Below are positions 23,010 to 56,041 of a DNA stretch of 64,000 bases, piece by piece. The stretch comes from Gammaproteobacteria bacterium (GTDB taxonomy: Bacteria > Pseudomonadota > Gammaproteobacteria > UBA5861): positions 2,988 to 66,987 of the forward strand of contig JAKSCV010000075.1 of the NCBI GenBank assembly GCA_022360445.1, read 5' to 3'. The translations under genes and the position numbers were made by a program. The notes under the pieces are model-generated. The model saw only the letters and a list, made by a program, of their open reading frames with translations. It was not told the origin of the DNA and ran no database searches. How positions within the stretch are numbered: position 1 is the first letter of the stretch; each line of letters opens with the position of its first letter.

Positions 23010-23158
23010 TACAGTCGGGTGTTACACACAGCTAGAGCACAGACAGCCAGGCTGACAGGCCACGCCGGCCAGCACTTGGTGCAGCAACGGAATGGATATT
23101 GCCCTGCATGCACTGAAGAGGCAGTGCTCGTCTGCGCCGGCACAGGAGTGCCGCGCAG

Positions 23159-28344: not shown

Positions 28345-30513
28345 TTAGAATTGATAGCTCAAACCCAGCTCAACGCTCCTTTCGGCACCAAACCAGCAGT
28401 TATTACTGTCATAACAGCTGTAGTAACGTTCGTCGGTAATATTGTTGGCGGAAAGGCGTATGACAGCAGCGCCAATTTCGCGTGAGATGGCCAGATCAAA
28501 CACGGTATAGCTGGGCACGGTATCAGTGTTGAGGGCATCCATTTGGGTTTCACCCACATAGCGTGCACCGGCACTGAAGGTGGTGTTGGCCATCAGCCCT
28601 TCGAAGAACGCATAGTCGAGCCAGAAGCTGGCGGTTTGATCCGCAACCCAGACAGGTGTTTTTCCTTCCAGCCCACTATTGTCCTTGGTGACTTCGACAT
28701 CGATCCAAGTGTAGTTGAATGTCCATGCGAGGTTGTCATTGACGATATGCCGGCTTTCCAGTTCAACCCCTTGAGAACGGGTTTCGCCCGCTTGAATCAA
28801 ATCATAAGGGCCGCCGTTGGGGTCTCGGGTCAGATCATTTTTCTTGGTGATATGAAAGGCCGCCACTCTGAACTGATTGCTTTGATCAGGCGAGTTATAT
28901 TTAAGCCCGAGTTCCCACTGATCGGCAGTCGCAGGATCAAAAGTGTTGCCATTGCGATCACTGCCACCGGTTGGCTCGAAGCTCTGCGCATAACTCAGGT
29001 AAGGAGACATTCCATTGTCGAACTCGTACAGAATACCCATTCTGCCGGAAAATTCGCTCTGATCAATCTCACTGGTCGCCGGTGCACCGTATTTGGTGCC
29101 CTTCTCTGTGTAGTTGTATTGGTCGTAGCGCCCGCCGATAAGGGCAATCCAGTTATCCACCCGCAACTGGTCCTGTAGGTAAAATCCAACCTGATCAGAC
29201 TCAATGGTGAAATCAGATGTATAAGGTGTTGTCCCGACCAGAGTGTTTGGGTCGATAAGGTGGTGATCCGGGTTGTACAAATCAATGGGCGGAACGACTG
29301 TCTGATCCCAATCCTCATAACGAACATCGGAGCTTAAGTCCTGGTAGTCAACGCCAACCAGAAGGTTGTGCTCTACCGTGCCGGTGTGAAATTTTCCAGC
29401 AAGTTGGTTATCGACCGTCAAGCCTTTTGATGTTTCGTCGGTGAGGTAAGCGCGCCGCAATAACAGTCTGTCTGCATTGGGTGCCATATTGGCCGGGGGA
29501 GGCGCGTCACTCAATAAACCGGTGTTGTAAGTGTTTTCCTGGTAGACCTCTGCATCCATGTAACGGGCTTGATGAAGCAGCGTCCAACCGCTCTCAAACT
29601 CGTGATTAACCTTGTAACCGGGCATGGTGACGGTGCGGTCGTAGGTGTTCCAATTTGCGTCTCCGGCATAAAAGTCTGTGTCAAGACGACCATAGGGGGT
29701 GTCAAACACACTACCGGCGGCTGGAACGGTATTATAGACACCTGCGGAAGGATCTTTTTGGTAGTAAAGGTTAAGGTTTACCAAGGTCTTGTCGCTCACT
29801 TGCCAGTCTACCGACGGGGCAAACACCTGGCGCTCTTCTTCTGAAGTGACGGCCTGTCCGTCTCGCTTGCGTGCCAATCCGACCACGCTGTAAGACAGGT
29901 CGCTGGATTGAATCTGCCCACGAGACTCAACGCTAATCTCTTTCAGGCTATTCGTTCCCAGCGCAATGCCCACTTGGTTAAAGGACTGCTGACTGGGTTG
30001 TTTAGAAATCAGATTAACGAAACCACCCGGTGGCATGTTGCCATAGAGAGATGAGGTGGGGCCCTTGAATATTTCCACTTGCTCTACCGCGATCGCATCC
30101 ACCTGAGGCTGTAAATTCCAACCGTTATACAGCAGTGGCAAGCCATCATAGGCATTTTGATAGTTGGGAAATCCACGGATATTGAACTGATCTACCCGAG
30201 ACACTGCGCCGCCACGCAGTTCTGTGGTAACACCAGACACATACCGCAGTGCTTCGTTAATGGAGTCTGCATCCCTTATCTCCAGAGTATGACTATCAAT
30301 TACCGAAACACTTTGAGGCGTTTCTTCTGGCGGAAGAAGCGATTTGGTCGCCGTGTGGCGATAAGTCTCGGTAACACTTACCTCCGGTAAAAGAATAATC
30401 GAAGAAGCGTCGTGGGCCTGCTCTGCATGGGCAGTACCTGAGCTCAACATGGCGATGCCTGTGCTTATGCCTAGGCAGAGTGATTGATACCGTTTTGTAC
30501 GAGTGTGTGGCAT
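28345..30513 (-). CDS. TonB-dependent siderophore/haem-type outer-membrane receptor
   Basis: The true start is probably the ATG at 30513 (MPHTRTKRYQSLCLGISTGIAMLSSGTAHA, signal peptide). The protein is 722 aa, with a TonB box (ILLPEVSVTE) and a C-terminal ..LGLSYQF. A Fur box lies in its promoter. Confidence 0.85.
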   Translation of the reverse strand: MPHTRTKRYQSLCLGISTGIAMLSSGTAHAEQAHDASSIILLPEVSVTETYRHTATKSLLPPEETPQSVSVIDSHTLEIRDADSINEALRYVSGVTTELRGGAVSRVDQFNIRGFPNYQNAYDGLPLLYNGWNLQPQVDAIAVEQVEIFKGPTSSLYGNMPPGGFVNLISKQPSQQSFNQVGIALGTNSLKEISVESRGQIQSSDLSYSVVGLARKRDGQAVTSEEERQVFAPSVDWQVSDKTLVNLNLYYQKDPSAGVYNTVPAAGSVFDTPYGRLDTDFYAGDANWNTYDRTVTMPGYKVNHEFESGWTLLHQARYMDAEVYQENTYNTGLLSDAPPPANMAPNADRLLLRRAYLTDETSKGLTVDNQLAGKFHTGTVEHNLLVGVDYQDLSSDVRYEDWDQTVVPPIDLYNPDHHLIDPNTLVGTTPYTSDFTIESDQVGFYLQDQLRVDNWIALIGGRYDQYNYTEKGTKYGAPATSEIDQSEFSGRMGILYEFDNGMSPYLSYAQSFEPTGGSDRNGNTFDPATADQWELGLKYNSPDQSNQFRVAAFHITKKNDLTRDPNGGPYDLIQAGETRSQGVELESRHIVNDNLAWTFNYTWIDVEVTKDNSGLEGKTPVWVADQTASFWLDYAFFEGLMANTTFSAGARYVGETQMDALNTDTVPSYTVFDLAISREIGAAVIRLSANNITDERYYSCYDSNNCWFGAERSVELGLSYQF

Positions 30514-30550
30514 GAAGTGGTTCCTAACCTCTAAGAAAATCGAATACATA

Positions 30551-30590
30551 TAATAATAGGAATGCGAAGCATTATCATATAGAATATCAA
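30551..30590. promoter_or_regulatory. Fur box in the divergent promoter between the TonB-dependent receptor and exbB
   Basis: TAATAATAGGAATGCGAAGCATTATCATATAGAATATC carries the GCATTATCAT / AATGCGAA half-sites of the Fur consensus. Confidence 0.55.
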
Positions 30591-30679
30591 CATATCGCAA
30601 AGTGCATTGCAACCTTCGATCCGCTATCCACACTTGCCGTGCTTCTCGAATTCACTGCCCAGACAGGATTGCCATAACC

Positions 30680-31609
30680 ATGACACAAACCTTCCCCTGC
30701 ACTCACCTTTCTCAGACGAATCGTCATCTGTTGTCGCTGTGGGTATTGGTCTTAACCTTACTTTTGCCAGCCATGGCTCAGCCATCGGATCATGGAAAAA
30801 TGCTTCCCGTATCAGAAAAGCGTTCTGCATCATCAATAGAGTCAGACACCCCTAACGCCACTGATATCGCCCCGCCTCAAACAGAGCAGGCAACATTGCC
30901 GCACAACCTCTCACCCTGGGGCATGTTCATGGGCGCCGATTGGGTGGTTAAAGCGGTGATGATTGGGCTGGCAATCGCCTCATTACTGACCTGGACAGTG
31001 CTGGTTTCAAAGAGCATTGAACTCAGGGCATTGAAACGCCTGTTACGAAGCGATTTGAGCCAACTCAGTACCGTAGGCTCCCTGAAAGATGCGGCCAACT
31101 CCTCTTCCATTTCCGATGCTGGACGTGAGCTGATTAACGCCGCTGAGACTGAATTGAATTTATCAGCAAATCTGGTGAGCCAAGAGGCCGGAAAAGACGG
31201 CATCAAAGAGCGGGTGGTCTCTAGCCTTTCACGAATTGAAGCGGCCTCCGCTCGAGCCATGTTGACCGGTACCGGGCTGCTTGCCACCATTGGTGCCGTT
31301 GCCCCGTTCGTGGGTCTGTTTGGAACGGTCTGGGGCATCATGAACAGTTTTATTGGCATCTCACAGGCCAAAACCACCAATCTTGCTGTGGTTGCACCGG
31401 GCATTGCCGAAGCGCTGCTGGCAACAGCCCTAGGGCTGATTGCAGCGATACCTGCTGTGGTCATCTACAACCACTTCACCCGCCGAATCGCGGTTGCCAA
31501 AGCACTCGTATCAGATAATGCAGCGGCAGTAATGCGGCTGGTATCCCGCGATCTCGATCGGGGGCTATCCCCAAATGTGGCCGTTGTGCAACAACGGGGG
31601 CGCAAATGA
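30680..31609 (+). CDS. exbB: ExbB/TolQ/MotA-family proton channel with a cleavable-looking N-terminal extension
   Basis: The start was chosen at the ATG at 30680 (MTQTF...). The protein is 309 aa, with an N-terminal hydrophobic signal-like segment and then three TM helices typical of ExbB (GLLATIGAVAPFVGLFGTVWGIMNSF). Confidence 0.8.
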   Translation: MTQTFPCTHLSQTNRHLLSLWVLVLTLLLPAMAQPSDHGKMLPVSEKRSASSIESDTPNATDIAPPQTEQATLPHNLSPWGMFMGADWVVKAVMIGLAIASLLTWTVLVSKSIELRALKRLLRSDLSQLSTVGSLKDAANSSSISDAGRELINAAETELNLSANLVSQEAGKDGIKERVVSSLSRIEAASARAMLTGTGLLATIGAVAPFVGLFGTVWGIMNSFIGISQAKTTNLAVVAPGIAEALLATALGLIAAIPAVVIYNHFTRRIAVAKALVSDNAAAVMRLVSRDLDRGLSPNVAVVQQRGRK

Positions 31610-32031
31610 GCATGGGGCTGGGGCAAACAGACAATGATGATGAGCTGCTTGAATCCCACGAAATCAACGTCACGCCGTTTATTGACGTTATGTTGGTTTT
31701 GTTGATTATTTTCATGATCGCCGTGCCCTTGGCCACGGTTGACGTGCCGGTTGATCTACCCACATCGAATGCCAGCAAACAGGATCGTCCCGATACACCG
31801 GTTTATCTGACCATCAGACAAGACCTCAAACTGGCGCTGGGGGACGAACTTGTCAGCCACGACCAACTAGCGGCGAAGCTTGAGCAAGCCACAGGGGGTG
31901 ACCAAGAAACCCGGTTGTTTTTGCGAGCAGATAAATCAGTGGACTACGGCGAATTGATGAACGTAATGAATCAGTTACGTGCTGCCGGGTATTTAAAAAT
32001 TGCACTGGTAGGCCTTGAAGCGACAACATGA
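31606..32031 (+). CDS. exbD: Biopolymer transport protein ExbD
   Basis: The 141-aa ORF carries the INVTPFIDVMLVLLIIFM TM anchor, overlaps exbB by 4 bp and is followed by tonB. Confidence 0.9.
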   Translation: MSMGLGQTDNDDELLESHEINVTPFIDVMLVLLIIFMIAVPLATVDVPVDLPTSNASKQDRPDTPVYLTIRQDLKLALGDELVSHDQLAAKLEQATGGDQETRLFLRADKSVDYGELMNVMNQLRAAGYLKIALVGLEATT

Positions 32032-32762
32032 GCGTCAACGTTTACCAGCGAATTTTGCAAAAACCCACACTGCGTTGGGGCGGGTCATTTTTTAGCGTGA
32101 CCGCTGTTTATGTTTGCCTGGTGTTTATTGCATTGAGTTGGCGCTCAGCGGTCGACCGTATACCTGCTCCACCCGAGGCAGTCATGATGGTCGACTTGGA
32201 GCCTCTGCCAGCAGCCCCCTCTACTTCAGCCCCTATGCCAACAGAACCGGAACCCGAGCCAGAACCCGAGCCAGAACCCGAGCCAGAACCAGAGCCAGAA
32301 CCAGAACCAGAACCAGAGCCTGTACCAAAGCCAAAACAGGTAGAACAAGTGAGGCCACCCATCACAGAGGAGCAAACCCAGGAAAAGGAACGCGCGTCTG
32401 CTGATACCGAAATACCACCGGCGCTGAAGAGCGCTGCCCAAGCAGGCTCTACATCACCGTCACAGGCCGACGCAGTCGCTACCTGGCACTCGATGTTGCT
32501 GGCGCACATTGAACGCTACAAACGTTACCCAAGACAGGCCCGCCGCCGAGGACAGGAAGCGGTGATCTACGCGCAGGTGACGATTAACCGGGATGGTACG
32601 GTGACAGCTCATCAATTGACAAAACCCAGTGCCTATAAAACATTGAACCGAGAGGTACTGGCGCTAATCAGCCGCGCTCAACCTTTACCGCCCCCACCCA
32701 AGGGAGTTGGGGGAGAAACAATAGCGTTCGTGCTGCCCGTGTCATTTTCGCTGAAACGTTAA
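32028..32762 (+). CDS. tonB: TonB energy transducer with an (EP)n proline-rich spacer
   Basis: The 244-aa ORF has an N-terminal TM helix, PEPEPEPEPEPEPEPEPEPEPEPEP and a C-terminal TonB domain (..ETIAFVLPVSFSLKR). It is translationally coupled to exbD. Confidence 0.9.
   Translation: MSVNVYQRILQKPTLRWGGSFFSVTAVYVCLVFIALSWRSAVDRIPAPPEAVMMVDLEPLPAAPSTSAPMPTEPEPEPEPEPEPEPEPEPEPEPEPEPVPKPKQVEQVRPPITEEQTQEKERASADTEIPPALKSAAQAGSTSPSQADAVATWHSMLLAHIERYKRYPRQARRRGQEAVIYAQVTINRDGTVTAHQLTKPSAYKTLNREVLALISRAQPLPPPPKGVGGETIAFVLPVSFSLKR
32225..32325 (+). repeat. In-frame tandem repeat (GAA/G CCN GAG CCA units) encoding the (EP)n spacer of TonB
   Basis: Runs of gaaccagagcca / gaacccgagcca are visible directly. 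This is coding and is not a CRISPR array. Confidence 0.8.
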
Positions 32763-37646: not shown

Positions 37647-38903
37647 ATGAAAAAATTTATTGCGTTACTTGCCGGCATTGCACTGAGCACCAGTGGGTGG
37701 GCAAAAACAACGGAAAAAGCTGTTCTCACACACTACGCTGATTTAGCTCATGCTATGTATCAGGACTCACTGATCACAGCCCAGGCACTCCATAAAGCAG
37801 TGAAGCAATTAGCCGCTCAACCCACGGAAGCCAATCTCAACCATGCAAAAGTTGCTTGGAAAGCCGCCCGTGTCCCCTATCAGCAAACAGAAGCCTACCG
37901 CTTTGGCAATGCCATCGTTGATGACTGGGAAGGCAAAGTCAACGCATGGCCACTGGATGAAGGTCTGATCGATTATGTCGATGGCAGTTATGGCTCAGAG
38001 TCCGATGAGAACCCCTACTACACGGCTAACATCGTCGCCAATGAAAAACTCATGATTGGTGGCCAAAGCATTGATACCGGCAACATTACCAAAGCGCTTC
38101 TGTCCGATACTTTGCACGAAATTGATGAGGTTGAGTCAAATGTTGCCACAGGTTATCACGCCATTGAATTCTTACTGTGGGGGCAAGATTTGAATGGTAC
38201 CCAAGCTGGTGCAGGTAAACGCCCTGCCAGTGATTTTTCTAACGAAAACTGCACTGGAGGTCACTGCGATCGCCGAGTCGCCTATCTTCTCGCCACGACC
38301 GAATTACTCGTTGATGAACTCAACTGGATCACATCTCAATGGGCCAAAGGTGGAGATGCTCGCAAAGCCCTGATGGACGGCGACAGCAAAGCAAGCATCG
38401 GCACTATTTTGACCGGGCTAGGCAGCCTCTCCTATGGCGAGCTGGCCGGAGAGCGAATGAAGCTCGGAGTCATGCTGCACGACCCGGAAGAAGAACACGA
38501 CTGCTTTAGCGACAATACGCACTGGTCACACTATTACGATGCTATGGGCATAAAAAATGTTTATACAGGCCGTTACACGCGCGTTAGCGGTGAAACACTC
38601 AGTGGCCCCAGCGTCTCATCACTGGTGGCCAAGAAAGACGCAAAGGTCGATCAGGCGCTACGTGATCAAATTGAAACTACACTGGCCAAAATGCAAGTCC
38701 TGGTCGATAGCGCTGAAAAAGACAACGTTGCCTACGACCAGCTCATCGCAGAAGGAAATACCGCAGGAAACGCCAAGGTAATGGATGCTGTTAACGCGCT
38801 TGTTGCGCAAACCAAAGGAATCGAAAGCGCAGTGGCTACTTTAGGGCTCAACCCTATTGAGTTCGAGGGCTCAGATAGCCTTGATGCACCGCATAAAGTC
38901 TAG
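37647..38903 (+). CDS. Imelysin-family lipoprotein (IrpA/IcmP-like)
   Basis: The 418-aa ORF has a signal peptide plus the GYHAIEFLLWGQD (GxHxxE) imelysin motif. Confidence 0.75.
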   Translation: MKKFIALLAGIALSTSGWAKTTEKAVLTHYADLAHAMYQDSLITAQALHKAVKQLAAQPTEANLNHAKVAWKAARVPYQQTEAYRFGNAIVDDWEGKVNAWPLDEGLIDYVDGSYGSESDENPYYTANIVANEKLMIGGQSIDTGNITKALLSDTLHEIDEVESNVATGYHAIEFLLWGQDLNGTQAGAGKRPASDFSNENCTGGHCDRRVAYLLATTELLVDELNWITSQWAKGGDARKALMDGDSKASIGTILTGLGSLSYGELAGERMKLGVMLHDPEEEHDCFSDNTHWSHYYDAMGIKNVYTGRYTRVSGETLSGPSVSSLVAKKDAKVDQALRDQIETTLAKMQVLVDSAEKDNVAYDQLIAEGNTAGNAKVMDAVNALVAQTKGIESAVATLGLNPIEFEGSDSLDAPHKV

Positions 38904-38963
38904 CCCACACAAGGTAGCGTTGTAAAAGCACAGCGCTACCGCCCCGTTTAGCCAGGTTTATCC

Positions 38964-40412
38964 ATGAAACCCAGTCAACACATGAGTCTCGCCGTGCTGC
39001 TAATGCTCTCAACTCTAACGGCAAAAGCCGATCTCCCGGCACTGACGAATAATTTCACTCAGCCGGAAACGGGTGAAGCTTACCCCGGTGGAAAAAGCAC
39101 TTCTACCCGACCTGCTGACAAGCGGGCGTACTCACACCCCAGCACTAACATGAAGCCTGAGCGCAAACTGGATTTCACCTTAGGCAAAGCGATGTTTAAA
39201 CGCCTGTGGGCTTCTGCGCCAACCACCACACAGGCAGCAGATGGCCTTGGCCCACTATTCAATGCTCGGTCCTGCTTGCAATGCCACCAAGGTAATGGCC
39301 GTGGCAAACCCCAGGCACAGGCTGGAAAAACCGATCCTTCCTTTTTTTTACAACTCAGTATTTCCGGCCCGGCAAACACGCAGAAAACAACACACACCCC
39401 GCCCCCTGAACCCACCTATGGCCACCAATTGCAACCTTTTGCCGTGCGGGGATTACCAGCAGAAGGACAGGTTCGAATCACTTACGAGTCGATCCGCGTC
39501 CCGCTCGCTGATAACGAAGTCATCACGCTTCGCAAACCCCGTTACGAGATCACCCAGCTAAACTATGGTCCACTTCATCCAGACACACTCACGTCACCAC
39601 GCATAGCCCCCCAACTGATCGGGTTAGGCCTGCTGGGCGCCATTCACCCGAAAGATCTCGAATCACTGGCCGACCCTGGCGACAACGACCAGAATGGAAT
39701 TTCGGGTCGTATCAACCACGTCTGGAGCGAGCAACACGATGCGCTCAAGCCAGGGCGATTTGGCTGGAAAGCAAGCACCGCCAGCATCAACGAACAAACA
39801 CAAAAAGCCTTCTTTTTCGACATCGGCCTATCCACACCTCTGTTTAAAAGCGGTGCAGGCGAGTGTACCCCGACACAGGCCGCTTGCCAGTCCCTGCCGA
39901 ATGGCAACTCTCCCCAATACGAAGACCTGGAAGCCCACTCAGACATTACTAACTGGACCGCACTTTATACACGTAACCTGGCCGTTCCTCAGCGTAGAAA
40001 TTTCAATGACGCGCGTGTTCTCAGTGGAAAGCAGTTGTTTTACCAAAGCGGTTGCACAGCGTGCCACCAACCTAAATTCATAACCCGTGATGATCCCGTC
40101 GACCCGGAACATGCCCGCCAACTGATCTGGCCGTATACCGATCTACTGTTACATGACATGGGTGAGGACTTGGCCGACCACCGGCCTGTTGCCGGCGCAA
40201 GCGGACGGGAGTGGCGCACAGCACCGCTGTGGGGGATCGGCTTAAGCAAGACGGTTAATGGCAACAACAACTTTCTGCACGATGGCCGCGCCCGCACCCT
40301 GCTGGAAGCTATCCTATGGCACGGTGGTGAGGCTGCTGACTCACGCAAGAAGATTGTCAATATGACCCGAACACAACGTGCGGATTTAATTCTGTTTATC
40401 GAATCCTTGTGA
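38964..40412 (+). CDS. Dihaem c-type oxidoreductase of the DUF1111 family (the putative thiol oxidoreductase / peroxidase-like partner of imelysins)
   Basis: The 482-aa ORF has a signal peptide and two CxxCH haem motifs (CLQCHQGNG and CTACHQP). Confidence 0.7.
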   Translation: MKPSQHMSLAVLLMLSTLTAKADLPALTNNFTQPETGEAYPGGKSTSTRPADKRAYSHPSTNMKPERKLDFTLGKAMFKRLWASAPTTTQAADGLGPLFNARSCLQCHQGNGRGKPQAQAGKTDPSFFLQLSISGPANTQKTTHTPPPEPTYGHQLQPFAVRGLPAEGQVRITYESIRVPLADNEVITLRKPRYEITQLNYGPLHPDTLTSPRIAPQLIGLGLLGAIHPKDLESLADPGDNDQNGISGRINHVWSEQHDALKPGRFGWKASTASINEQTQKAFFFDIGLSTPLFKSGAGECTPTQAACQSLPNGNSPQYEDLEAHSDITNWTALYTRNLAVPQRRNFNDARVLSGKQLFYQSGCTACHQPKFITRDDPVDPEHARQLIWPYTDLLLHDMGEDLADHRPVAGASGREWRTAPLWGIGLSKTVNGNNNFLHDGRARTLLEAILWHGGEAADSRKKIVNMTRTQRADLILFIESL

Positions 40413-40422
40413 GGAAACAGAT

Positions 40423-41508
40423 ATGCTCCATAAAAGACTTGTTCAACGGCTGCTGCAAAGCCTGGGGTTTCTCAGCGTACTGACGTTTACAGCCAGTGTA
40501 CACGCTGAACCCAACTGGAAAAGCCTTAACCAGGCAGTGATCGACCAACATATCTTGCCACGCTATCAGCAACTGCAAACCGATACTCAAGCACTTGCGC
40601 AAGCCACAACACTTTTTTGCACTCAACACACCCGTTCGACCTTTGATCAACTGAAAGCCACTTACCAGCACACAATGGATAGCTGGATGGCTATTCAGCA
40701 TATTCGCTTTGGCCCTGTAGAGGCTTCACTGCGCTACTACCGCTATCAAATCTGGCCAGACAAACACAACACAGGGACCAAACAACTCCAGCGTCTGCTG
40801 AAGAGCGAAGATCTGAAACGACTTGAGCCCAAGCAGTTTGCACAAAGCAGTGTTGCCGTTCAGGGTTTGACCGCACTGGAGCGCCTGCTTTTCCCAACAG
40901 CACTGGATCTGGGGCAATTTGGGTCCCCTCAGGCACCCAGCTACCACTGTGAACTGATTTTGGCCATTGCTCGGAATTTGGCACTCATGTCGTCGGCAAT
41001 CGTTACCGACTGGACAGTCAGTGAAGTGCCTTACCGTACACGCGTCCTCACTGCCGGGCCAGAGAGTGATGATTTCACCAGTCACAGAGAAATTGCGAGC
41101 CAATGGCTCAACAGCATTAGCACGCAGCTCCAGGTGATCACCGAACAAAAATTGCTTCGTCCACTCAAACGTTTCCGTTTAAAGCGTGCAGAATCCTGGC
41201 GGAGCCGCCGCTCACTGGACAATATTTTTTTGAACCTGCACGCCATCCGTGAGCTCTACGCGATAGGCCTAGCACCCAAATTACCTGAAGATCCGTTAGA
41301 CAACGCGATCAAAAAAGCGTTTGACCAGGCCATCACCTCGATCACAGCACTCGATACCCCGCTTTATGACATCAAACAGGACTCACCAGAGGCCAAGAAG
41401 CTGGAAAAAATACTCGCCGATGCTCGCCAATTGACGGCATTAGCCTCCTCTGAGCTGCCCCAGGCCTTGGGTCTATCGCTGGGATTTAACAGTTTGGACG
41501 GTGACTGA
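40423..41508 (+). CDS. Imelysin-like protein (second paralogue, lacking the canonical HxxE)
   Basis: The 361-aa ORF has a signal peptide and a GLTALERLLF motif region, positioned as the third gene of the conserved imelysin-DUF1111-imelysin-like-DUF1513 arrangement. Confidence 0.6.
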   Translation: MLHKRLVQRLLQSLGFLSVLTFTASVHAEPNWKSLNQAVIDQHILPRYQQLQTDTQALAQATTLFCTQHTRSTFDQLKATYQHTMDSWMAIQHIRFGPVEASLRYYRYQIWPDKHNTGTKQLQRLLKSEDLKRLEPKQFAQSSVAVQGLTALERLLFPTALDLGQFGSPQAPSYHCELILAIARNLALMSSAIVTDWTVSEVPYRTRVLTAGPESDDFTSHREIASQWLNSISTQLQVITEQKLLRPLKRFRLKRAESWRSRRSLDNIFLNLHAIRELYAIGLAPKLPEDPLDNAIKKAFDQAITSITALDTPLYDIKQDSPEAKKLEKILADARQLTALASSELPQALGLSLGFNSLDGD

Positions 41509-41510
41509 CC

Positions 41511-42638
41511 GTGCCCATAACCCGACGCCAGTTTATGCTCGCAGCGACCGGTTTTTCGCTGCTGTATACAGGCACGATTAGGCGTAGCGGACACAGCAGT
41601 ACCCAGTACCTGAGTGCTTACACCGATGCAAAAGGCGATGACTTCATCAGTGGCTTTAACCAAAAAGGGAGCTTCCAGTTTCAGACGCCCCTGCCCAGCC
41701 GAGGGCATGCCATTGCCGTATCGCCCGTCACTCAAGACGCCGTCGCTATTGCCCGCAGACCCGGTCGCTACTTAATTGTTATTGATACAAGAACGGGCCA
41801 AATACGGCACACTCTGGAAAGCCATGCTGGGCGACACTTTTATGGCCATGGCGTCTTTTCGCAGGATGGACGGTGGTTCTACACCACGGAGAATGACTTT
41901 ACCAGTGGACAAGGGGTGATTGGTGTATGGGATGCTCAACGAGACTACCAGTTAGTGGACACATTTTTATCCTACGGTATCGGTCCACATGAGCTGATCA
42001 TGCTCTCAGATGGCCAGACACTCGCTGTGGCGAATGGCGGGATTCAAACACACCCCGACACCGGCCGGGCCAAATTAAACCTTGAACAGATGCGGCCGTC
42101 TCTCACCTACCTTGACAGCCGCCGAGGCACTCTTCTGGAGCAACAGCACCTCCCACCGCTGTGGCACAAAAACAGTATCCGGCATCTGGCATCTACCCCG
42201 GATGATTGTATTTGCTTTGTCATGCAATACCAGGGACAAGCCAGCGTGGCACCATCACTGGTCGGCCTTCACCGGAAAGGTCAACCGGTTCAGTTACTTT
42301 ATGCACCACCCACAATTCAAAAAAATATGCGCAATTACTGCGGGAGCGTTTGTGCCGATACCTCGGGGACAATATTTGCGGTCTCTTCACCCAAAGGGGG
42401 GATTGTAACTTTTTGGCGCGCGAAAGACGGCCAGTTTTTGGGACACAGCAAGCTGATTGATGGTTGCGGCATTGCCAGAGGCCAACAGCCTGGCATGTTT
42501 TTATTGAGTAACGGTGCCGGGCACCTGGTCCACATCCAGGTCAATCAGCAGCAGTTAAACACAACGTTGACCACTCAAAAATCCCAAATACACTGGGACA
42601 ACCACATGACGCATATTCCAGTTTCATCATTCGGATGA
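41511..42638 (+). CDS. DUF1513-family protein with a Tat signal
   Basis: The 375-aa ORF has RRQFMLAATGF and is colinear with the paralogue at 23159-24262. Confidence 0.7.
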   Translation: MPITRRQFMLAATGFSLLYTGTIRRSGHSSTQYLSAYTDAKGDDFISGFNQKGSFQFQTPLPSRGHAIAVSPVTQDAVAIARRPGRYLIVIDTRTGQIRHTLESHAGRHFYGHGVFSQDGRWFYTTENDFTSGQGVIGVWDAQRDYQLVDTFLSYGIGPHELIMLSDGQTLAVANGGIQTHPDTGRAKLNLEQMRPSLTYLDSRRGTLLEQQHLPPLWHKNSIRHLASTPDDCICFVMQYQGQASVAPSLVGLHRKGQPVQLLYAPPTIQKNMRNYCGSVCADTSGTIFAVSSPKGGIVTFWRAKDGQFLGHSKLIDGCGIARGQQPGMFLLSNGAGHLVHIQVNQQQLNTTLTTQKSQIHWDNHMTHIPVSSFG

Positions 42639-42653
42639 CGACGGAGATAAACC

Positions 42654-43820
42654 ATGCATATTCCTCACGCGACACCTTTGCTTCTGGCAGGCATGATGAC
42701 CCTCTTTCCGTTTCACACCTTATCGGCCTTTGAAACGGTTGAAATGCTGGGCCAGACACTCTTTTTTGACAAAAACCTCTCCAAAAACCGTACACAGTCC
42801 TGTGCCACTTGCCATGATCCAGCTAACGGTTTTGCAGACGCCCGTGACAATGCAGCCGCTGGCACCGTCTCACTGGGTGATGACAACGCTTCCCTGGGGG
42901 ACCGGAACGCACCCACAGCCGCTTACGCAGCCTTTAGCCCGCCTTTCCACCTCAACAAAGAGGGTATATACGTGGGTGGGCAGTTCCATGACGGCCGAGC
43001 CAAAAACCTCACCGAACAAGCGGGTGGCCCACCCACCAACCCCATTGAAATGGGGCTTCCGGACAAGGCTGCTACCGTCAAGCGGTTACAGGAAAATAAG
43101 CAATATGTCTCAAGCTTTAAAACGTTTTACGGTGAGAATATCTTCCACAACACGGACAAGGCCTATACCGCCATGGCTCAGAGTATTGCCGCTTTTGAAA
43201 AAACGGCTTTCTTCTCACCTTTTGACTCCAAATACGACCGCTATTTACGCGGTGAATATACCCTGAATAAAGAAGAAGATCTGGGTATGACGCTCTTCTT
43301 CTCCAAACAATTCACTAATTGCAATCTTTGCCACCAGCTCAAAAAATTACCAGGCCGCGAAAGCGAAACCTTTACCAACTACAGCTACCACAACATCGGC
43401 ACCCCCATCAATCAAAAGGCACGAAGTGTGAATGGCGTGCTGGCAGACCACATTGACAAAGGCTTGCTCGACAACCCTGACGTCAACGACCCGGCTCAGG
43501 CGGGCAAATTTAAAGTCCCGACTTTGCGTAATGTCGCAGTCACCGCACCCTATATGCACAACGGTATTTTCTCCGATCTTCGTACAGTTGTGCTGTTCTA
43601 CAACAAATACAACAGCCGCAGTGCAAAACGCCAAATCAATCCGGAAACCGGTCAGCTCTGGCAATCACCCGAAATCGCAGAAAACCTCTCGTTACAGGAG
43701 CTGGAAACCGGCCCCGCCCTGGATGATAAGCGCATCGATGCGTTGGTGGCCTTCATGAAGACATTGACTGATCAGCGTTACGAGCACTTGCTCAAACAGC
43801 CCTTGCAAAACCGGCCCTAA
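42654..43820 (+). CDS. Dihaem cytochrome c peroxidase (CcpA/MauG family)
   Basis: The 388-aa ORF has a signal peptide, two haem sites (CATCHD and CNLCHQ) and the CCP-family conserved regions (GQFHDGRAKNLTEQAGGP, FKVPTLRNVAVTAPYMHNG). Confidence 0.85.
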   Translation: MHIPHATPLLLAGMMTLFPFHTLSAFETVEMLGQTLFFDKNLSKNRTQSCATCHDPANGFADARDNAAAGTVSLGDDNASLGDRNAPTAAYAAFSPPFHLNKEGIYVGGQFHDGRAKNLTEQAGGPPTNPIEMGLPDKAATVKRLQENKQYVSSFKTFYGENIFHNTDKAYTAMAQSIAAFEKTAFFSPFDSKYDRYLRGEYTLNKEEDLGMTLFFSKQFTNCNLCHQLKKLPGRESETFTNYSYHNIGTPINQKARSVNGVLADHIDKGLLDNPDVNDPAQAGKFKVPTLRNVAVTAPYMHNGIFSDLRTVVLFYNKYNSRSAKRQINPETGQLWQSPEIAENLSLQELETGPALDDKRIDALVAFMKTLTDQRYEHLLKQPLQNRP

Positions 43821-50257: not shown

Positions 50258-52111
50258 GTGATGAAATCTTATACAAAATGGCTCCCTTTTATTTTATTGC
50301 TCGCACTAGGCTTTTATTTTTACTTCAGCAGCTTAGACGACAATAGAACAGACAGCAGTCAGAAGCCTGTCACCGTGTCTTACTCAGCGTTCAAAAAGCT
50401 CCTGAGCGCTGGCGAAATTCAACATATTTTGTTCGAAGGGCAACGTGCTCACATCACACTGAAAAGGCCCATACCGGTGGGCGAAAAGCAAATCGCAAGC
50501 ACAGCTTTAGTCAGCTTTTTGCCACCATTGGAAAATCCTGACCTGCTCCAAACAATCCACGCTCAGCAGGTCGAGATCGAGAGCCGCCCAGCGCCCCAAA
50601 GCGGGAATGCATGGCTCAGCCTACTACCCTGGTTGTTGCTTCTCGGATTTTACTGGTGGATCTGGCGCAGGCAAATGGGAGGAGCTGCTGGAGGCAGACC
50701 AGACATCACCGGCTTTCTAGGTCCTGGCAACAAGAAAACTGACGAACTGCCCGATATCCGCTTTGATGATGTCGCCGGACAAGACAACGCCAAAAACGAA
50801 ATCAGCGAGCTGGTGGACTTCCTTCGTGACCCAGAACGCTATGCCCGGCTTGGAGCGGAAGCGCCTCGCGGCGTGCTGATGATGGGGCCGCCGGGCACCG
50901 GTAAAACGCTACTGGCGAAAGCACTGGCTGGCGAAGCGGGTGTACCCTTTTTCAACATCTCCGCCTCGGAATTTATCGAGCTTTACGTCGGAGTGGGTGC
51001 AGCCCGAGTTAGGAGCATGTTTGCGGATGCCAAACAAAAAGCGCCGAGCATCATTTTTATTGACGAAATTGACAGTGTCGGGCGCGTCAGGGGAACAGGT
51101 TTAGGCGGTGGCCACGACGAACGTGAACAAACACTCAACCAAATTCTTGCGGAAATGGACGGCTTTAGCGGCCACGAAGCGGTGATCGTACTCGCGGCCA
51201 CCAACCGGCCCGATGTGCTGGACCCGGCCTTGCTTCGCCCAGGGCGATTCGACCGCCACGTGACTCTAGAGCTTCCAGACAAAAATGCCCGGGAAGCCAT
51301 TCTACGAGTCCACACACGCAAAATTCCTTTAGCGGAAAATGTCGATCTGTCGGTTGTTGCCGCAGGCACACCCGGATTTTCCGGTGCTGATTTGAAGAAT
51401 CTTGTCAATGAGGCGGCAATGATGGCCGTCCGCAAAGGCACGGCTGATGTGGAAATGAAGCACCTCGAAGACATGCGCGACAAGGTATTGATTGGCAGCG
51501 TACGCACCCTGGCTATTCAGCCTGAAGAGCGACACCGGCTCGCTGTTCATGAGTCAGGACACACAGCAGTGTCTTATTTTTTACCGAATGCAGACCCTTT
51601 GTACAAAGTCAGCATCATCCCTCGCGGGCAAGCCCTGGGCGTCACACAGTCACTCCCTGTTCAGGAACGCCACACATTACCCGAAGACTACCTACGCGAC
51701 CGCCTGCCTGTAATGCTCGGCGGGCGGGCGGCAGAAGTCATCTTCCTCGGCAATTGCAGTTCTGGTGCCGATGATGATATCAAACAGGCCACGCAACTGG
51801 CCCGGGCCATGATCTCACGTTGGGGTATGTCAAAAGCAATCGGCCCCCTGGAGGTTCGGGACTCCGAATCCCATCCTTTTTTAGGTCGGGAAATGGCGCA
51901 AAGCAAACACTACAGCGAATCCACTGCGAGCCGCGTTGATCAGGAAGTCAGCAAATTGTTAAAAGCGGCTGAGGCCCGAGCGATCCAAATTATGCAAGAT
52001 CACAAATCACAGATTAATACCCGCATCGTGGAACTGGAACAAAAAGAAACACTGGACCACGACCAAATCGAACATTGCCTGCAATCAGTATCAGACCAGC
52101 AAATCGGTTAA
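50258..52111 (+). CDS. FtsH-family AAA+ zinc metalloprotease paralogue
   Basis: The 617-aa ORF has N-terminal TM helices, Walker [14 protein letters not shown], Walker B IIFIDEID, the SRH, and the zinc site HESGHTAV. Confidence 0.85.
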
Positions 52112-52191: not shown

Positions 52192-52818
52192 GTGTCCACT
52201 CACGAAAAACAATTGAGCGAACAGCCTTTCATCAACCCAACCGCTCAGGTCAGCAAAAGCTGTCAGCTCGGGAAATACACGGAGGTAGGGGCACGAACAC
52301 AGCTGGCGGAAACAACGCTTGGGGATTACAGCTACATTGTTAATGACGCCGAGGTGATTTACACCGAGATCGGAAAGTTTTGCTCCATTGCCTCACACAC
52401 TCGCATCAACCCAGGCAATCACCCCATGTGGCGCGCCTCCCAACATCATTTCACCTACCGATCACGGCAATATGGGTTTGAACTGGACGACGACGAAACT
52501 CTCTTCAATTGGCGCCGCGAACATGCAGTTGTTATCGGACATGATGTTTGGATTGGCCACGGTGCCGTGATTTTGCCCGGTACCACCATCGGGACAGGAG
52601 CGGTTGTTGCTGCCGGGGCTGTCGTCAGTAAAAATGTACCGGACTACACGATTGTGGCAGGCGTCCCAGCCCAGCCCATCCGCCTGCGTTTCGAACCGGA
52701 CCTCGTTAAAAAAATGCTGACCCTGGCCTGGTGGAACTGGCCGCATGAACGATTGAATCATGCCCTTTACGATCTTCGAAATCTTGATGCACGCGCCTTC
52801 GTCAACAAGCACAGTTAG
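52192..52818 (+). CDS. Hexapeptide-repeat xenobiotic O-acetyltransferase (CatB/Vat streptogramin-chloramphenicol acetyltransferase family)
   Basis: The 208-aa ORF is colinear with CatB/Vat, including the catalytic His region (..HHFTYRS) and the left-handed beta-helix repeats (VIGHDVWIGHGAVILPGTTIGTGAVVAAGAVVSKNVPDYTIVAGVPA..WWNW). Confidence 0.75.
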   Translation: MSTHEKQLSEQPFINPTAQVSKSCQLGKYTEVGARTQLAETTLGDYSYIVNDAEVIYTEIGKFCSIASHTRINPGNHPMWRASQHHFTYRSRQYGFELDDDETLFNWRREHAVVIGHDVWIGHGAVILPGTTIGTGAVVAAGAVVSKNVPDYTIVAGVPAQPIRLRFEPDLVKKMLTLAWWNWPHERLNHALYDLRNLDARAFVNKHS

Positions 52819-53113
52819 GGAGCAAGCACCGTACAAAATGCGTGCATTTTCTGCACTCAAATGCACCAAAACAATACACCTCGGGATTTTCCTGCACCAA
52901 AACATAACTTATTTCTATATTGATCATTACTTTTTTGTCACATTGATTTTTTTGAGAAACATCTCCAACTTTTCTCAACAGGCCTCGTCTATAAACTGCA
53001 CCAAGGTTTCGGCTTAAGGATGGACTCGGCGGATGATCTCGCTTCTTTCCCCCTCATTTATCACTTCAGCCAAAGCGATACTCTAAATCCCCCTCTCAGA
53101 ACGAGACTCACAC

Positions 53114-55216
53114 ATGAAACTGGATTATGGAAAATACCGAGGCATTATTGTTTCTATTGCGCTTTTCCTTTTGTTGGACGCTTCTGTCCTTTTGATGAAC
53201 TTTTATATTTCATTTCAAATCGCTCACGATGCCGTTAGCATCAACCTGGCTGGGCGTCAACGAATGCTCTCCCAGCGCACCATGAAGTCTTTGTTGGAAT
53301 TGCAAAGATCTGAAGCGGGCCTGGACGAGCAACAAACAGCCCTGGAAGAACTCAGTGCAAGTGCGGAACTTTTCCACACAACATTGCTTGCATTTGATGC
53401 GGGCGGTGAGGCACCTTCGACTGATGGTGCAATTGCGACGCTTGAAGCGGTTTCCTCCGCAGCGGCATTAGATGCCGTTGCCGAGGGCAAAGTGCTCTGG
53501 TTCCCGTTATACGACAAAATGAAATCCCTGCAGCTCGAATCTTCCATTAACAGCCCGATTTTCCAGGAAAAACTCGCTGATGCGATCCAGTATGGCCATG
53601 AACACAATCTGACGTTGTTGATGCTGATGAATCAGCTCACAACCGATCTGGAGGCCGTTGCAAGCGCACAGGCAACACGCCTTCGTATCATTCAAACCGT
53701 TGGTATCGCTCTTGCTCTGATTAACTTTTTTATCATCATGTTTCACTTTTTACGTCAATTACGAGAAAGTGACGAGAAGATCGAAACGGCTCGACAGGAA
53801 ACACAAGAAATTCTAGATACCGTTAACGAAGGTCTGTTTTTGATTGATACACAGCAAAAGATCGGAGTACAGCACTCTAAAGAACTGGAACATATCCTTG
53901 GTCGAGAAAATATCGCCGGAAAGGCGTTTGCCGAGCTTATGGCTGATTTGATCTCAGAAAAGGACTTGTCCACGACAAAAAGCTTCATCAAACTTCTGTT
54001 TGATCCACGCAAAAAGCAAAAGCTGATTGGTGACTTAAACCCACTCAGAAAAGTTGAACTGCATATTCCCCAGGAAAACGGTGGATACGAAAATAAGCAC
54101 CTCTCCTTTACTTTTACTCGTGTGATGAAAGGCAAACAAATCATCCACATTCTTGTTACGGTCACAGACATTTCTGAGCAAGTACGCCTGGCCGTAGAAT
54201 TGGAGCAGGCTCAAGCACGCGGACAAGAGCAGCTACAGCTACTTTCCAGCATTGTCCAGACCGACCCGGGTATGCTCACGATGTTCCTCAACAGCAGTCA
54301 CAAAACATTCAATGAAATTAATGAAATATTGAAGGTACAGAACAAGTCTACACACCAGTATGTCTCTAAGATCAATCAAATCTACGCCTTGATTCATAAA
54401 TATAAAGGTGAAGCGGCAGCACTGGAGTTAGAGCAGTTCGTTGAGCTGGCACATGAGTTCGAGGACAAAATTGCTGAGCTAAAAGCGAATCCTAACCTTT
54501 CCGGTAATGACTTTTTGAAACTGACGATCAAACTGGATCAGCTCATGGAGCAAACTGAAATCATTCAACAACTTGCTGAAAAAGTGTCGGGGCTGAATAT
54601 TACGGAATATTCAGCGGAACCCAGTGCTACTCACTCTTACTGGGATGGCCAGCACTTTCACTCACTAGCCCAACAAGTCGCGGAACGCCAGGGCAAGCAA
54701 GTGGAAGTCATTTGTGCGGGTTTTAATGATCATGCACTGTCACCTAATTTAAAGGAGACCCTCAACACGGTTGCTATTCAACTGATCCGCAACGCAGTGA
54801 GCCATGGCGTGGAAACACCCGCGCAACGAAAACAGGAAATGAAAGCAGCACAAGCAGAAATTCACATTAGCCTGGTGAAGCGAGCCAATGGTAACTTCCA
54901 GCTCACGATTGAAGATGACGGCATGGGTATCAACCTCAACAAAATCCGTACAACAGCGGTTGAACAGGGTGTCATCAACGCAGAAGAAGCCACCGACCTC
55001 AACAATACCAAAACAGCCGCTTTGATTTTCCATCCAGAATTGTCGACCAAAACAGAGGCTGATGCTGATGCCGGCCGCGGTATCGGCCTTTACGCGATAC
55101 GTGACATGATCAGAAACATGGGCGGAAAAATCTCCGTCAGCTCACGGCGGGGTATCGGATCAATCTTTACCGTGACTCTACCGGAGTATGAAAAATCACT
55201 TAAGGCCAGCGCATAA
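53114..55216 (+). CDS. Membrane-anchored CheA-like histidine kinase: a periplasmic PilJ/NarX-type four-helix sensor between two TM helices, fused to Hpt and HATPase_c domains with no DHp dimerisation domain
   Basis: The 700-aa ORF has TM1 at about aa 10-30, LAGRQRMLSQR (PilJ-N/NIT-like), TM2 at about aa 195-215, Hpt HKYKGEAAALEL, an N-box IQLIRNAVSHGVE, G1 DDGMGIN and G2 GRGIGLYAIRDMIRNMGGKISVSS. Confidence 0.7.
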   Translation: MKLDYGKYRGIIVSIALFLLLDASVLLMNFYISFQIAHDAVSINLAGRQRMLSQRTMKSLLELQRSEAGLDEQQTALEELSASAELFHTTLLAFDAGGEAPSTDGAIATLEAVSSAAALDAVAEGKVLWFPLYDKMKSLQLESSINSPIFQEKLADAIQYGHEHNLTLLMLMNQLTTDLEAVASAQATRLRIIQTVGIALALINFFIIMFHFLRQLRESDEKIETARQETQEILDTVNEGLFLIDTQQKIGVQHSKELEHILGRENIAGKAFAELMADLISEKDLSTTKSFIKLLFDPRKKQKLIGDLNPLRKVELHIPQENGGYENKHLSFTFTRVMKGKQIIHILVTVTDISEQVRLAVELEQAQARGQEQLQLLSSIVQTDPGMLTMFLNSSHKTFNEINEILKVQNKSTHQYVSKINQIYALIHKYKGEAAALELEQFVELAHEFEDKIAELKANPNLSGNDFLKLTIKLDQLMEQTEIIQQLAEKVSGLNITEYSAEPSATHSYWDGQHFHSLAQQVAERQGKQVEVICAGFNDHALSPNLKETLNTVAIQLIRNAVSHGVETPAQRKQEMKAAQAEIHISLVKRANGNFQLTIEDDGMGINLNKIRTTAVEQGVINAEEATDLNNTKTAALIFHPELSTKTEADADAGRGIGLYAIRDMIRNMGGKISVSSRRGIGSIFTVTLPEYEKSLKASA

Positions 55217-55218
55217 CC

Positions 55219-55599
55219 ATGAAGCCAATACTCAAAATGATGATTGTGGATGATTCGAATATTATCCGCTCAAAAATTAAACGTGCGCAGGCGTCAACCC
55301 GATTTGATGTCGTTGCTGTCGCAGCCAATGGCGCTGAAGCGGTCAACCTTTTTACTCAATATCAGCCTGATGTTGTCACGATGGATTTGACCATGCCACA
55401 AATGGACGGCATCAATTGCATCGAAAAATTGGTTGAAATTAACCCTGAGGTTTCTATTCTGGTCGTCTCTGCACTCTCGGACGAAGCAACCGGTATCGAA
55501 GCATTGGAAAAAGGTGCCAGCGGTTTTTTATTAAAGCCATTCGGTGAAGAAAACCTGCGTGAGGCTTTAGAGGAATTAACGGATCATCTCCATGTCTGA
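55219..55599 (+). CDS. CheY-like single-domain response regulator
   Basis: The 126-aa ORF has MIVDDS, a phospho-acceptor Asp context (VVTMDLTMPQMDG) and a conserved K (LLKPF). Confidence 0.85.
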   Translation: MKPILKMMIVDDSNIIRSKIKRAQASTRFDVVAVAANGAEAVNLFTQYQPDVVTMDLTMPQMDGINCIEKLVEINPEVSILVVSALSDEATGIEALEKGASGFLLKPFGEENLREALEELTDHLHV

Positions 55600-56041
55600 A
55601 CAAAACTTACAAGTATTTATTGATGCCGTCGCGCGTTACTTCGATCACACAAGTGATAACGACCTGCGTGTTGGCACACCTTATCTTTTACCGAATACGG
55701 ACCCTATGTCGATGGATTACACTGGAATTATCGGTATCTCCGGTAACCGTAAAGGATGCGTTTATTTCACTGCGCCACAGGCCATGTTACGCCATTTGAT
55801 TTTAAGTTTAGGAGAATCCGATACCTCAGAGCGAAATCTGGTGGATGTCGTCGGAGAAGTGGCTAACACCATCTCCGGTAATGCCAGGCGCGAACTGGGC
55901 AAGGAGTTCATGATCTCGGTTCCTGTCGTTATTTCAGGGCCACCTACGAGCATTCACTTACCCGAAGACCTTCGCTCCTATGTGATCCCTATCACTTGGC
56001 GTGCCTACAGTGCCGCCATTGTGATTTGCCTGCAACAATGA
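55592..56041 (+). CDS. CheX/CheC-family CheY-P phosphatase
   Basis: The 149-aa ORF overlaps the CheY gene by 8 bp and is colinear with CheX (..GIIGISGNRKGCVYFTA..., ..EVANTISGNARREL..). Confidence 0.6.
   Translation: MSEQNLQVFIDAVARYFDHTSDNDLRVGTPYLLPNTDPMSMDYTGIIGISGNRKGCVYFTAPQAMLRHLILSLGESDTSERNLVDVVGEVANTISGNARRELGKEFMISVPVVISGPPTSIHLPEDLRSYVIPITWRAYSAAIVICLQQ

Follow-up and report, generated by a model that had tools for sequence, protein, structure and literature searches.

A transmembrane sensor kinase with CheA-type Hpt and ATPase domains, encoded in one operon with CheY and CheX, and its probable link to nitrate

Introduction

In signalling by CheA, the P4 domain phosphorylates a histidine of P1, P1 donates the phosphate to CheY, and CheX hydrolyses CheY-P. 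CheA is usually seen as the sole histidine kinase without a sensor of its own, being controlled via P5 and CheW in arrays. All surveyed CheAs share a core of Hpt, P3, P4 and P5, and CheA is described as a kinase without sensor domain (PMC10542144). Here we describe a three-gene operon that joins the catalytic pair of CheA, P1 (Hpt) and P4, to a transmembrane (TM) ligand-binding domain (LBD) and encodes a CheY and a CheX in addition. The operon lies in a 64,000-nt stretch of DNA, referred to as the window, from a Gammaproteobacteria bacterium (UBA5861; assembly GCA_022360445.1, contig JAKSCV010000075.1). All coordinates are window positions unless another locus is named. An earlier note on this locus, made from the sequence alone, had described it as a self-contained phosphorelay with a membrane-anchored CheA-like kinase.

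Two described kinds of nitrate sensor are relevant for the comparison. The kinases NarX and NarQ possess a TM four-helix-bundle sensor with the motif A-G-x-x-R-M on helix 1, which senses periplasmic nitrate and is probably dimeric, followed by HAMP, S-helix, GAF-like, DHp (HisKA_3) and CA domains, and they phosphorylate the DNA-binding regulators NarL and NarP (PMC8199190). McpN (PA2788) of Pseudomonas aeruginosa is a nitrate chemoreceptor with a PilJ-type LBD (PDB 6GCV), in which nitrate lies at the dimer interface and is held by Arg61, the exchange R61A abolishing the binding (PMC6381276). McpN is methyl-accepting, signals via CheW and CheA and adapts by methylation. In all three proteins nitrate is bound symmetrically in the dimeric bundle and the signal passes via the second TM helix (PMC8199190; PMC6381276). 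The sequence [IVL]-[ND]-x-A-G-x-Q-R-M-L-[ST]-Q, termed N-box, has been proposed to identify, among chemoreceptors, kinases, cyclases and regulators, those whose PilJ domain binds nitrate (PMC6381276).

Results and discussion

Organization of the operon

An open reading frame (ORF) scan showed three translationally coupled genes at positions 53114-56041 of the forward strand:

53114..55216, + strand: sensor kinase, 700 aa (TM1, PilJ bundle, TM2, PAS-like domain, Hpt, CheA-P4 ATPase)
55219..55599, + strand: CheY-type single-domain response regulator, 126 aa (Pfam Response_reg)
55592..56041, + strand: predicted CheX-type CheY-P phosphatase, 149 aa (Pfam CheX)

The stop codon TAA of the kinase and the ATG of CheY are separated by 2 nt, and the reading frames of CheY and CheX share 8 nt (ATGTCTGA). 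All ORFs, coordinates and peptide motifs of the earlier note were reproduced, with LAGRQRMLSQR located at residues 45-55 and HKYKGEAAAL at residues 428-437 of the kinase. An Rfam scan of the window from 50 to 58 kb gave zero matches.

Domain anatomy of the kinase

The kinase is composed of the following parts, all on the + strand:

53141..53209: TM1, residues 10-32 (hydropathy; in the model part of a continuous helix 9-65)
53210..53680: periplasmic PilJ-type four-helix bundle, residues 33-189
53240..53275: N-box INLAGRQRMLSQ, residues 43-54, with Arg50 equivalent to Arg61 of McpN
53687..53749: TM2, residues 192-212, followed by a juxtamembrane linker of low confidence, residues 216-233 (hydropathy, model)
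53798..54169: cytoplasmic PAS-like domain, residues 229-352 (model, Foldseek, weak Pfam signals)
54173..54259: connector helix between PAS-like domain and Hpt, residues 354-382 (model)
54266..54601: Hpt domain of CheA-P1 type, residues 385-496; predicted phospho-acceptor His428 at codon 54395-54397
54650..55210: CheA-P4-type ATP-binding domain, residues 513-699, with N box 558-567, G1 box 601-606 and G2 box 654-659

Only three Pfam families matched above their gathering scores, namely PilJ at residues 31-102 (44.4 bits, cutoff 26.6), Hpt at 387-477 (33.5 bits, cutoff 24.6) and HATPase_c at 552-691 (56.4 bits, cutoff 26.4). Even at E<=1 no Pfam match was obtained to a HisKA family, H-kinase_dim or CheW, and Pfam revealed neither HAMP nor HisKA_3. 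Since the same scan of a NarQ-like protein encoded near the operon in Reinekea returned PilJ-HAMP-HisKA_3-HATPase_c, the method is able to detect both domains. A search of PDB sequences with the kinase matched CheA P4 domains alone (residues 514-690, E ~1e-21); these matches begin at P4 and do not cover P3, and the C-terminus of the protein (residue 700) follows P4 at once, leaving no P5. A profile of the Hpt region matched CheA P1 at an E of 1.6e-8 and no DHp domain, and the weak phmmer matches to HK853 fall on residues 257-315 within the PAS-like domain and comprise no significant stretch. On these grounds, a cryptic DHp domain in the kinase was dismissed. In NCBIfam no family model was found for the kinase, the best partial matches being CheA equivalogs with 140 bits compared to a cutoff of 950.

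The structure was predicted with AlphaFold2 (AF2) from an alignment of 57 sequences and reached a mean predicted local distance difference test (pLDDT) score of 83.9, compared to only 41 for a model from the single sequence. A Kyte-Doolittle hydropathy scan showed exactly two hydrophobic segments, at residues 10-32 and 192-212. In the model, one helix (9-65) continues from TM1 into the periplasm, three more long helices complete the bundle, and the last of them returns through TM2. On the cytoplasmic side, a beta/alpha fold at residues 229-352 is joined by a helix of 29 residues to a second four-helix bundle (385-496, Hpt). The ATPase (513-699) comes last, and the 16 residues that connect Hpt to P4 are disordered or of low confidence. 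The two TM helices flanking a PilJ-type four-helix-bundle sensor, as read by the earlier note, are therefore borne out by hydropathy, Pfam and the AF2 model, and its Hpt-type site with a CheA-like ATPase, without DHp or CheW-like domain, by the Pfam, Hpt-profile and PDB results. The cytoplasmic layout given there was right in placing Hpt before the ATPase; it missed the PAS-like domain of ~125 residues and the 29-residue helix between TM2 and Hpt. A cryptic DHp domain, a periplasmic region other than a four-helix bundle or a third protein without a CheC/CheX fold, each named by the note as contradicting its reading, did not turn up.

The domain at residues 229-352 is called PAS-like because of its predicted fold and weak Pfam signals. 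It shows a beta-alpha-beta topology at a pLDDT of ~85, and Foldseek aligns the stretch of PAS-like domain, helix and ATPase to LOV and PAS kinases. PAS_9 and PAS_8 were each detected in 4 of 16 relatives with a best E of 3e-4, compared to an E of 0.05-0.14 for the window kinase, and a profile of the region gave zero matches among PDB sequences. Invariant among the 57 relatives are His428, the N, G1 and G2 boxes of the kinase and the sensor motif. The same holds true for His211 (nt 53744-53746; FHFLRQLRESD) at the cytoplasmic end of TM2, as well as for L216 and D220.

CheY and CheX

The product of the second gene matched Response_reg with 100.8 bits and contains a complete active site (Asp11, Asp12, Asp56, Ser84 and Lys106) together with the aromatic switch Phe103. 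Its best PDB relatives are the chemotaxis CheYs of Thermotoga and archaea with an E of 2e-25, compared to ~1e-15 for other response regulators. The third protein reached 82.5 bits in the Pfam family CheX (cutoff 27), and its PDB matches are CheX and CheC-like proteins. It contains the motif D85-x3-E89-x2-N92, corresponding to D/S-x3-E-x2-N, the reported catalytic motif of CheC and CheX (Park et al. 2004). D85, G88, E89, N92 and P111 are invariant across 11 orthologues from four phylogenetic groups. By these sequence criteria the receiver qualifies as CheY-type and the third protein as CheX, in agreement with the CheY and overlapping CheX-type phosphatase of the earlier note. In an Opitutaceae metagenome-assembled genome (MAG; L030, 12458-13347), two tandem CheX genes instead of one follow CheY.

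Comparison with CheA, NarX/NarQ, McpN and stand-alone CheX

Compared to CheA (Thermotoga maritima, PDB 1TQG, 1B3Q and 1I58), the kinase lacks P2, P3 and P5, and possesses its own TM sensor and a PAS-like domain. While Hpt is N-terminal in CheA, it is placed here after the sensor and the PAS-like domain, ~16 residues from P4. Since two of the four core features are present and the trait of having no sensor is violated, the kinase is partly CheA-like but not a CheA.

With McpN it has the type of sensor in common, whereas the kinase is reached via a PAS-like domain and no MCP (methyl-accepting chemotaxis protein) signalling domain is present. The likeness to NarX and NarQ comprises the TM four-helix bundle with A-G-x-x-R-M on helix 1 and, as proposed below, periplasmic nitrate as ligand and a probably dimeric state. 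The kinase is not of the NarX/NarQ type because it has no HAMP and no HisKA_3; it uses Hpt and CheA-P4 instead, and it pairs with a CheY without output domain and a CheX instead of a DNA-binding regulator.

The split kinases CheA3 and CheA4 of Rhodobacter sphaeroides (PDB 3KYJ, P1-CheY6) both keep P5 and act in a cytoplasmic chemoreceptor cluster. They differ from the kinase of the window in having no sensor domain. For the third gene, the closest described cases are Borrelia burgdorferi CheX-CheY3 and T. maritima CheX (PDB 3HZH, 1XKO), which share the stand-alone CheX with a single E-x2-N site and the CheY-type receiver. In contrast to those proteins, which function within full flagellar chemotaxis, the CheX described here belongs to a sensor-kinase operon without MCP, CheW, CheR and CheB.

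Size and spread of the family

In an exhaustive search covering 1.84 billion cluster representatives (50% identity), 1,202 proteins matched the kinase at E<=1e-30. This threshold lies beyond the reach of CheA itself, since P4 alone gives ~1e-21. The best 150 of these matches all showed E<1e-105, and most of them aligned end to end. A word-indexed search returned 120 full-length matches, all of ~700 aa and with identical Pfam content, and all eight length variants examined keep PilJ, Hpt and HATPase_c. In view of these numbers the architecture cannot be called rare, as it was in the earlier note. In a longer subfamily of 830-875 aa (P0123, P0128, P0130, P0139, P0146, P0147 and others) ~150 residues are added at the N-terminus; P0123, the one member checked by Pfam, contains two PilJ stretches, and P0128 contains two exact N-boxes.

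By the genome scan, full-length members were found in Cellvibrionales, Spongiibacteraceae, Arenicella and Marinicella as well as in Burkholderiales, Methylophilaceae, Thiobacillus, Rhodocyclaceae, Opitutaceae and Verrucomicrobiales, a spread that comprises Gammaproteobacteria, Betaproteobacteria and Verrucomicrobia. The closest relative, L001, is a Halothiobacillaceae MAG (UBA5861) with 95% protein identity and synteny to the window. Its kinase gene is broken by runs of N (10075-10290 and ~11520-11700), which are masked stretches or scaffold gaps and no real insertion; the apparently longer match of 2,464 nt results from these runs. The family is large but unnamed, its members being labelled 'ATP-binding protein' or occasionally 'CheA' in the sources, and our literature searches found no study of the architecture sensor-PAS-Hpt-P4.

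Conservation of the operon and linkage to nitrate genes

In all 41 loci that extend far enough, kinase, CheY and CheX occur in the same order. Of these loci, 35 belong to the genome scan and were examined by tblastn with the window proteins, the other six being Pfam-annotated contigs; they originate from Gammaproteobacteria, Betaproteobacteria and Verrucomicrobia. No gene for MCP, CheW, CheR or CheB was conserved near the operon in the annotated contigs examined, and the single MCP observed, ~5 kb from the operon in Hahella, is not conserved. The module without these four components, as claimed in the earlier note, was thus found again.

Clustering of the flanking ORFs revealed one recurrent set, consisting of an NMT1_2 (NrtA-type) binding protein, the nitrate ABC (ATP-binding cassette) permease ntrB and the ATPase ntrCD. 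This set lies within 2 kb of the operon in eight loci from at least four lineages. In L021, the NCBIfam scores were 251 bits for ntrB (cutoff 209) and 335 bits for ntrCD (cutoff 292). The nrt-type genes are located directly upstream on the same strand in Ramlibacter, Polaromonas (twice), Rhodoferax, a Burkholderiaceae MAG, Thiobacillus and Arenicella, while in a Spongiibacteraceae MAG they follow the operon within 2 kb in the opposite orientation. In both loci checked for this (L015 and L021), genes for ANTAR regulators lie upstream alongside the nitrate set. Reinekea has its copy of the operon directly next to napEFDABC and a NarQ/NarP-like pair, the NarQ-like gene being 5 kb away. Altogether, five or more lineages have nrt or nap genes linked to the operon.

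Three further observations concern the surroundings of the operon. In L084 (GCA_003097315.1, 13463-19010) it immediately precedes a microcompartment cluster for ethanolamine utilisation (EutB, EutC, bacterial microcompartment shell, aldehyde dehydrogenase), ethanolamine being another nitrogen source. A gene for an outer-membrane porin of the alginate-export family adjoins the operon in L005 (4061-5224), L024, L026 and L028. In L005 this gene is placed between the operon and the nrt genes, and its product may be an anion porin.

The sensor domain and its probable ligand

Residues 43-54 of the window kinase (INLAGRQRMLSQ) match the N-box at 12 of 12 positions. N44, A46, G47, R48, Q49, R50, M51, L52 and Q54 are invariant among the 57 relatives. 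Among PDB sequences, the best match of the sensor is the LBD of the nitrate chemoreceptor McpN, with Arg50 aligned to Arg61. With PF13675 above its cutoff, the N-box pattern and the predicted four-helix-bundle fold, the sensor fits the N-box PilJ class. In the family as a whole the N-box is exact in 182 of 259 full-length members, which were collected by protein searches without use of the pattern. The complete N-box, together with nrt or nap genes beside the operon in five or more lineages, makes nitrate the ligand with the best support for the window kinase and probably the actual one.

Proteins 36-46% identical to residues ~7-230 of the kinase were observed in L038, L040, L041, L042 and L050 (Calothrix/Rivularia and other cyanobacteria) and in L043-L054. 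They match TM1, the N-box PilJ domain and TM2 and show no match to the PAS-like, Hpt and P4 domains, so that the N-box sensor seems to be combined with different outputs in these proteins.

Proposed pathway

The domain order, the catalytic residues, the constancy of the three-gene unit and its repeated linkage to nitrate genes are observations. For the following pathway, the ligand, the way in which it regulates the kinase and the individual phosphotransfers are inferred from what is established for the parent families. The kinase would act as a dimeric receptor-kinase of the inner membrane. Binding of nitrate at the dimer interface through Arg50 would shift TM2, and the PAS-like domain together with the connector helix would relay this shift and alter the access of the P4-type ATPase to His428. 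Because P3 is absent, the dimer would have to be kept together by the sensor, the TM helices, the PAS-like domain and the helix 354-382. The phosphate would then be handed directly from His428 to Asp56 of the adjacent CheY, and CheX, with Glu89 and Asn92, would hydrolyse CheY-P and cause a rapid decay of the signal. One polypeptide would in this way do the jobs of MCP, CheW and CheA, with no P3, no P5 and no adaptation based on methylation. Since the kinase contains no receiver domain, this is a two-step His-to-Asp pathway, and the term phosphorelay used in the earlier note does not apply. Taken together, we consider it probable, with appreciable room for other readings, that the operon encodes a self-contained, nitrate-gated pathway of CheA type that is reset by CheX.

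Since CheY has no output domain and comes with a fast phosphatase of its own, the pathway would be expected to have rapid kinetics and to act through protein-protein contact, for example with the motility apparatus, rather than on transcription. Motility as the output is a tentative guess and on balance unlikely, and the absence of methylation-type adaptation, which precludes classical temporal gradient sensing, counts against it. A more speculative extension, in which the nitrate receptor-kinase drives CheY onto a flagellar or pilus motor independently of arrays and methylation and CheX sets the time constant, is rather improbable. If true, it would mean chemokinesis or taxis to nitrate without MCP, CheW, CheR and CheB, a natural minimal 'MCP-CheA fusion' and a CheA-type P1/P4 core that is gated directly by a TM sensor.

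Alternative explanations

Several points weigh against nitrate as the ligand. Near the operon of the window, tblastn and Pfam revealed no genes for nitrate, nitrogen or motility: a tblastn search with the Nrt proteins of related loci found only a generic ABC ATPase at 16320-16967, and Pfam assigned ~30 other window ORFs to functions such as iron uptake, CoA metabolism and topoisomerase IV, and none to nitrate or motility. Most gammaproteobacterial loci likewise have no such genes nearby. The N-box was derived from McpN and its homologues as a proposed predictor and is not a validated rule, and since the loci of the genome scan were retrieved partly with an N-box peptide, members with N-box are over-represented among them. 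In the literature, no binding or phosphotransfer experiment on any family member was found. Furthermore, 77 of the 259 full-length members do not show an exact N-box. In ~18 of these the only change is from A to S at the A-G position, the arginine of Q-R-M being kept, but in many of the other divergent members the key arginine is replaced, and therefore the family overall may sense more than one ligand. These observations favour the most serious alternative, namely the same anatomy and phosphotransfer with nitrite, another oxyanion, a small molecule or a binding protein as the signal, for which the nitrate neighbourhoods would reflect shared regulation only; the divergent N-boxes would then show how evolvable the sensor is. 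For the window kinase, however, all 12 positions of the N-box including the arginine essential in McpN are present, the LBD of McpN is the best PDB match, and nrt or nap genes accompany the operon in five or more separate lineages, far more than expected from chance placement. We therefore regard another ligand as possible, yet clearly less likely than nitrate.

A degenerate or accessory chemosensory branch, i.e. a truncated CheA that needs MCPs and CheW encoded elsewhere or that feeds or drains the phosphate of the main Che system, could be suspected from the fact that Hpt, P4, CheY and CheX are each nearest to true chemotaxis proteins, especially those of Thermotoga and archaeal types. Such a branch is improbable, given that the kinase has its own TM sensor but neither P3 nor a P5/CheW-like docking domain, and that conserved genes for MCP or CheW are missing from its surroundings; decay would also not fit a full-length architecture that is conserved, with its catalytic residues, across ~1,200 clusters of 50% identity. 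An ordinary class I (DHp) or hybrid sensor kinase with a HisKA domain too divergent for detection would be in line with the Foldseek alignment of the PAS-helix-ATPase stretch to LOV-HisKA kinases over ~480 columns, and also with the location of Hpt at the very position that DHp occupies in ordinary kinases. Considering the Pfam and Hpt-profile results given above, this is the least probable of all explanations. Hardly more credible is a unit for sensing antibiotics or envelope stress formed by the module with the acetyltransferase and FtsH genes that precede it: the window and L001 carry these genes next to the operon in the same orientation, but their adjacency is missing from every other locus examined, the enzyme stays below the Vat and CatB cutoffs of NCBIfam, and a gap of 295 bp separates the acetyltransferase from the kinase.

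All parts of the proposed pathway are known, and it is a recombination of modules with no new principle. What the family adds is that the CheA catalytic pair has been wired to a TM LBD with P3 and P5 gone, and that this arrangement is kept in hundreds of lineages. If the mechanism is true, it would provide a far simpler natural system for the question of how a receptor gates the phosphotransfer between P1 and P4, a nitrate sensor of a third kind in addition to NarX/NarQ and McpN, and a testable ligand for an unannotated 'ATP-binding protein' of many marine and freshwater Proteobacteria.

Upstream region and promoters

Two features precede the kinase gene:

52192..52818, + strand: hexapeptide-repeat acyltransferase, 208 aa (within the range covered by the earlier note, outside the module)
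52819..53113, + strand: intergenic region 5' of the kinase, 295 bp

The intergenic region shows a GC content of 42% compared to 49% in the window and contains copies of TGCACCAA(A/G) at 52862, 52893 and 52997, so that the AT-rich region with three repeats reported in the earlier note could be confirmed. In the whole window, four copies of the 9-mer TGCACCAA were found compared to 1.8 expected, and 13 of 100 shuffles also reached four, so that this count is not unusual. Three TGCACC hexamers within 144 nt are mildly improbable, at ~0.03 after correction for the window. Only the middle copy is retained in L001, two of the three being lost. Just past the stop codon of the acyltransferase, a perfect inverted repeat GTGCA-N5-TGCAC (GTGCATTTTCTGCAC, 52842-52856) overlaps the first TGCAC repeat; it was flagged as terminator-like on the minus strand by the scan and could equally be an operator.

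In the window, no match to the sigma-70 consensus was found upstream of the kinase and no sigma-54 match (GG-N10-GC) within the 400 nt upstream. The interpretation of TGCACCAA as NtrC-type enhancers of a sigma-54 promoter was rejected for the window, since a promoter match is missing and two of the repeats are lost in L001. The orthologous loci differ from the window in this respect: in 14 of 36, the 400 nt preceding the kinase contain a strong sigma-54-type match, with 9 or more of the 11 positions of TGGCAC-N5-TTGCA, compared to 0.047 expected per 400 nt; the binomial probability of 3e-10 is to be read with the loci not being independent. Examples are TGGCACAGGACGTGCA and TGGCATAGTTTTTGCA, and the matches lie 60-230 nt 5' of the kinase start. 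They occur in L004, L006, L008, L011, L012, L013, L015, L016, L017, L019, L030, L032, L034 and L036; the window, L001 and L002 show no such match upstream of the kinase. TGCACC/GGTGCA hexamers, which presumably resemble an NtrC half-site, are modestly enriched upstream of the kinase (16 of 36 loci, p 0.004). These patterns suggest that many members are expressed under the control of RpoN and possibly of nitrogen, by which the promoter of the window is not accounted for. Since sigma-54 matches precede the kinase in many orthologous loci, the putative nitrate sensor is probably deployed under nitrogen limitation.

Neighbouring genes in the window

The earlier note had assigned the acyltransferase to the CatB/Vat type. 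Its NCBIfam scores remain below both cutoffs (Vat 109 compared to 300 bits, CatB 102 compared to 350 bits), while TIGR03308, the phn-associated hexapeptide transferase family (phn_thr-fam), is matched with 297 bits at a cutoff of 202. No phn genes were found among the ~30 larger window ORFs scanned by Pfam. The FtsH-family protein encoded at 50258-52111 reached 706 bits in the general FtsH model (cutoff 600) and 559 bits in the E. coli-type equivalog (cutoff 1008), consistent with a second, divergent FtsH and with the FtsH paralogue seen in the earlier note. Apart from the window, the near-identical L001 is the sole locus in which these two genes adjoin the operon. Consequently they are considered accidental neighbours, a functional link of the operon to them was rejected, the enzyme being neither Vat nor CatB, and the connection to antibiotics or stress that the note had drawn from them finds no support.

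Farther away, the window contains two paralogous sets of imelysin (Peptidase_M75) and DUF1513 genes at 21780-24262 and 37647-43820, the second of which also includes a di-haem oxidoreductase and a cytochrome c peroxidase. Near these sets, TonB-dependent receptors (24365-26701 and 28345-30633), ExbB/TonB (30602-32762) and a PepSY_TM protein are encoded, and the region looks like an iron-acquisition island.

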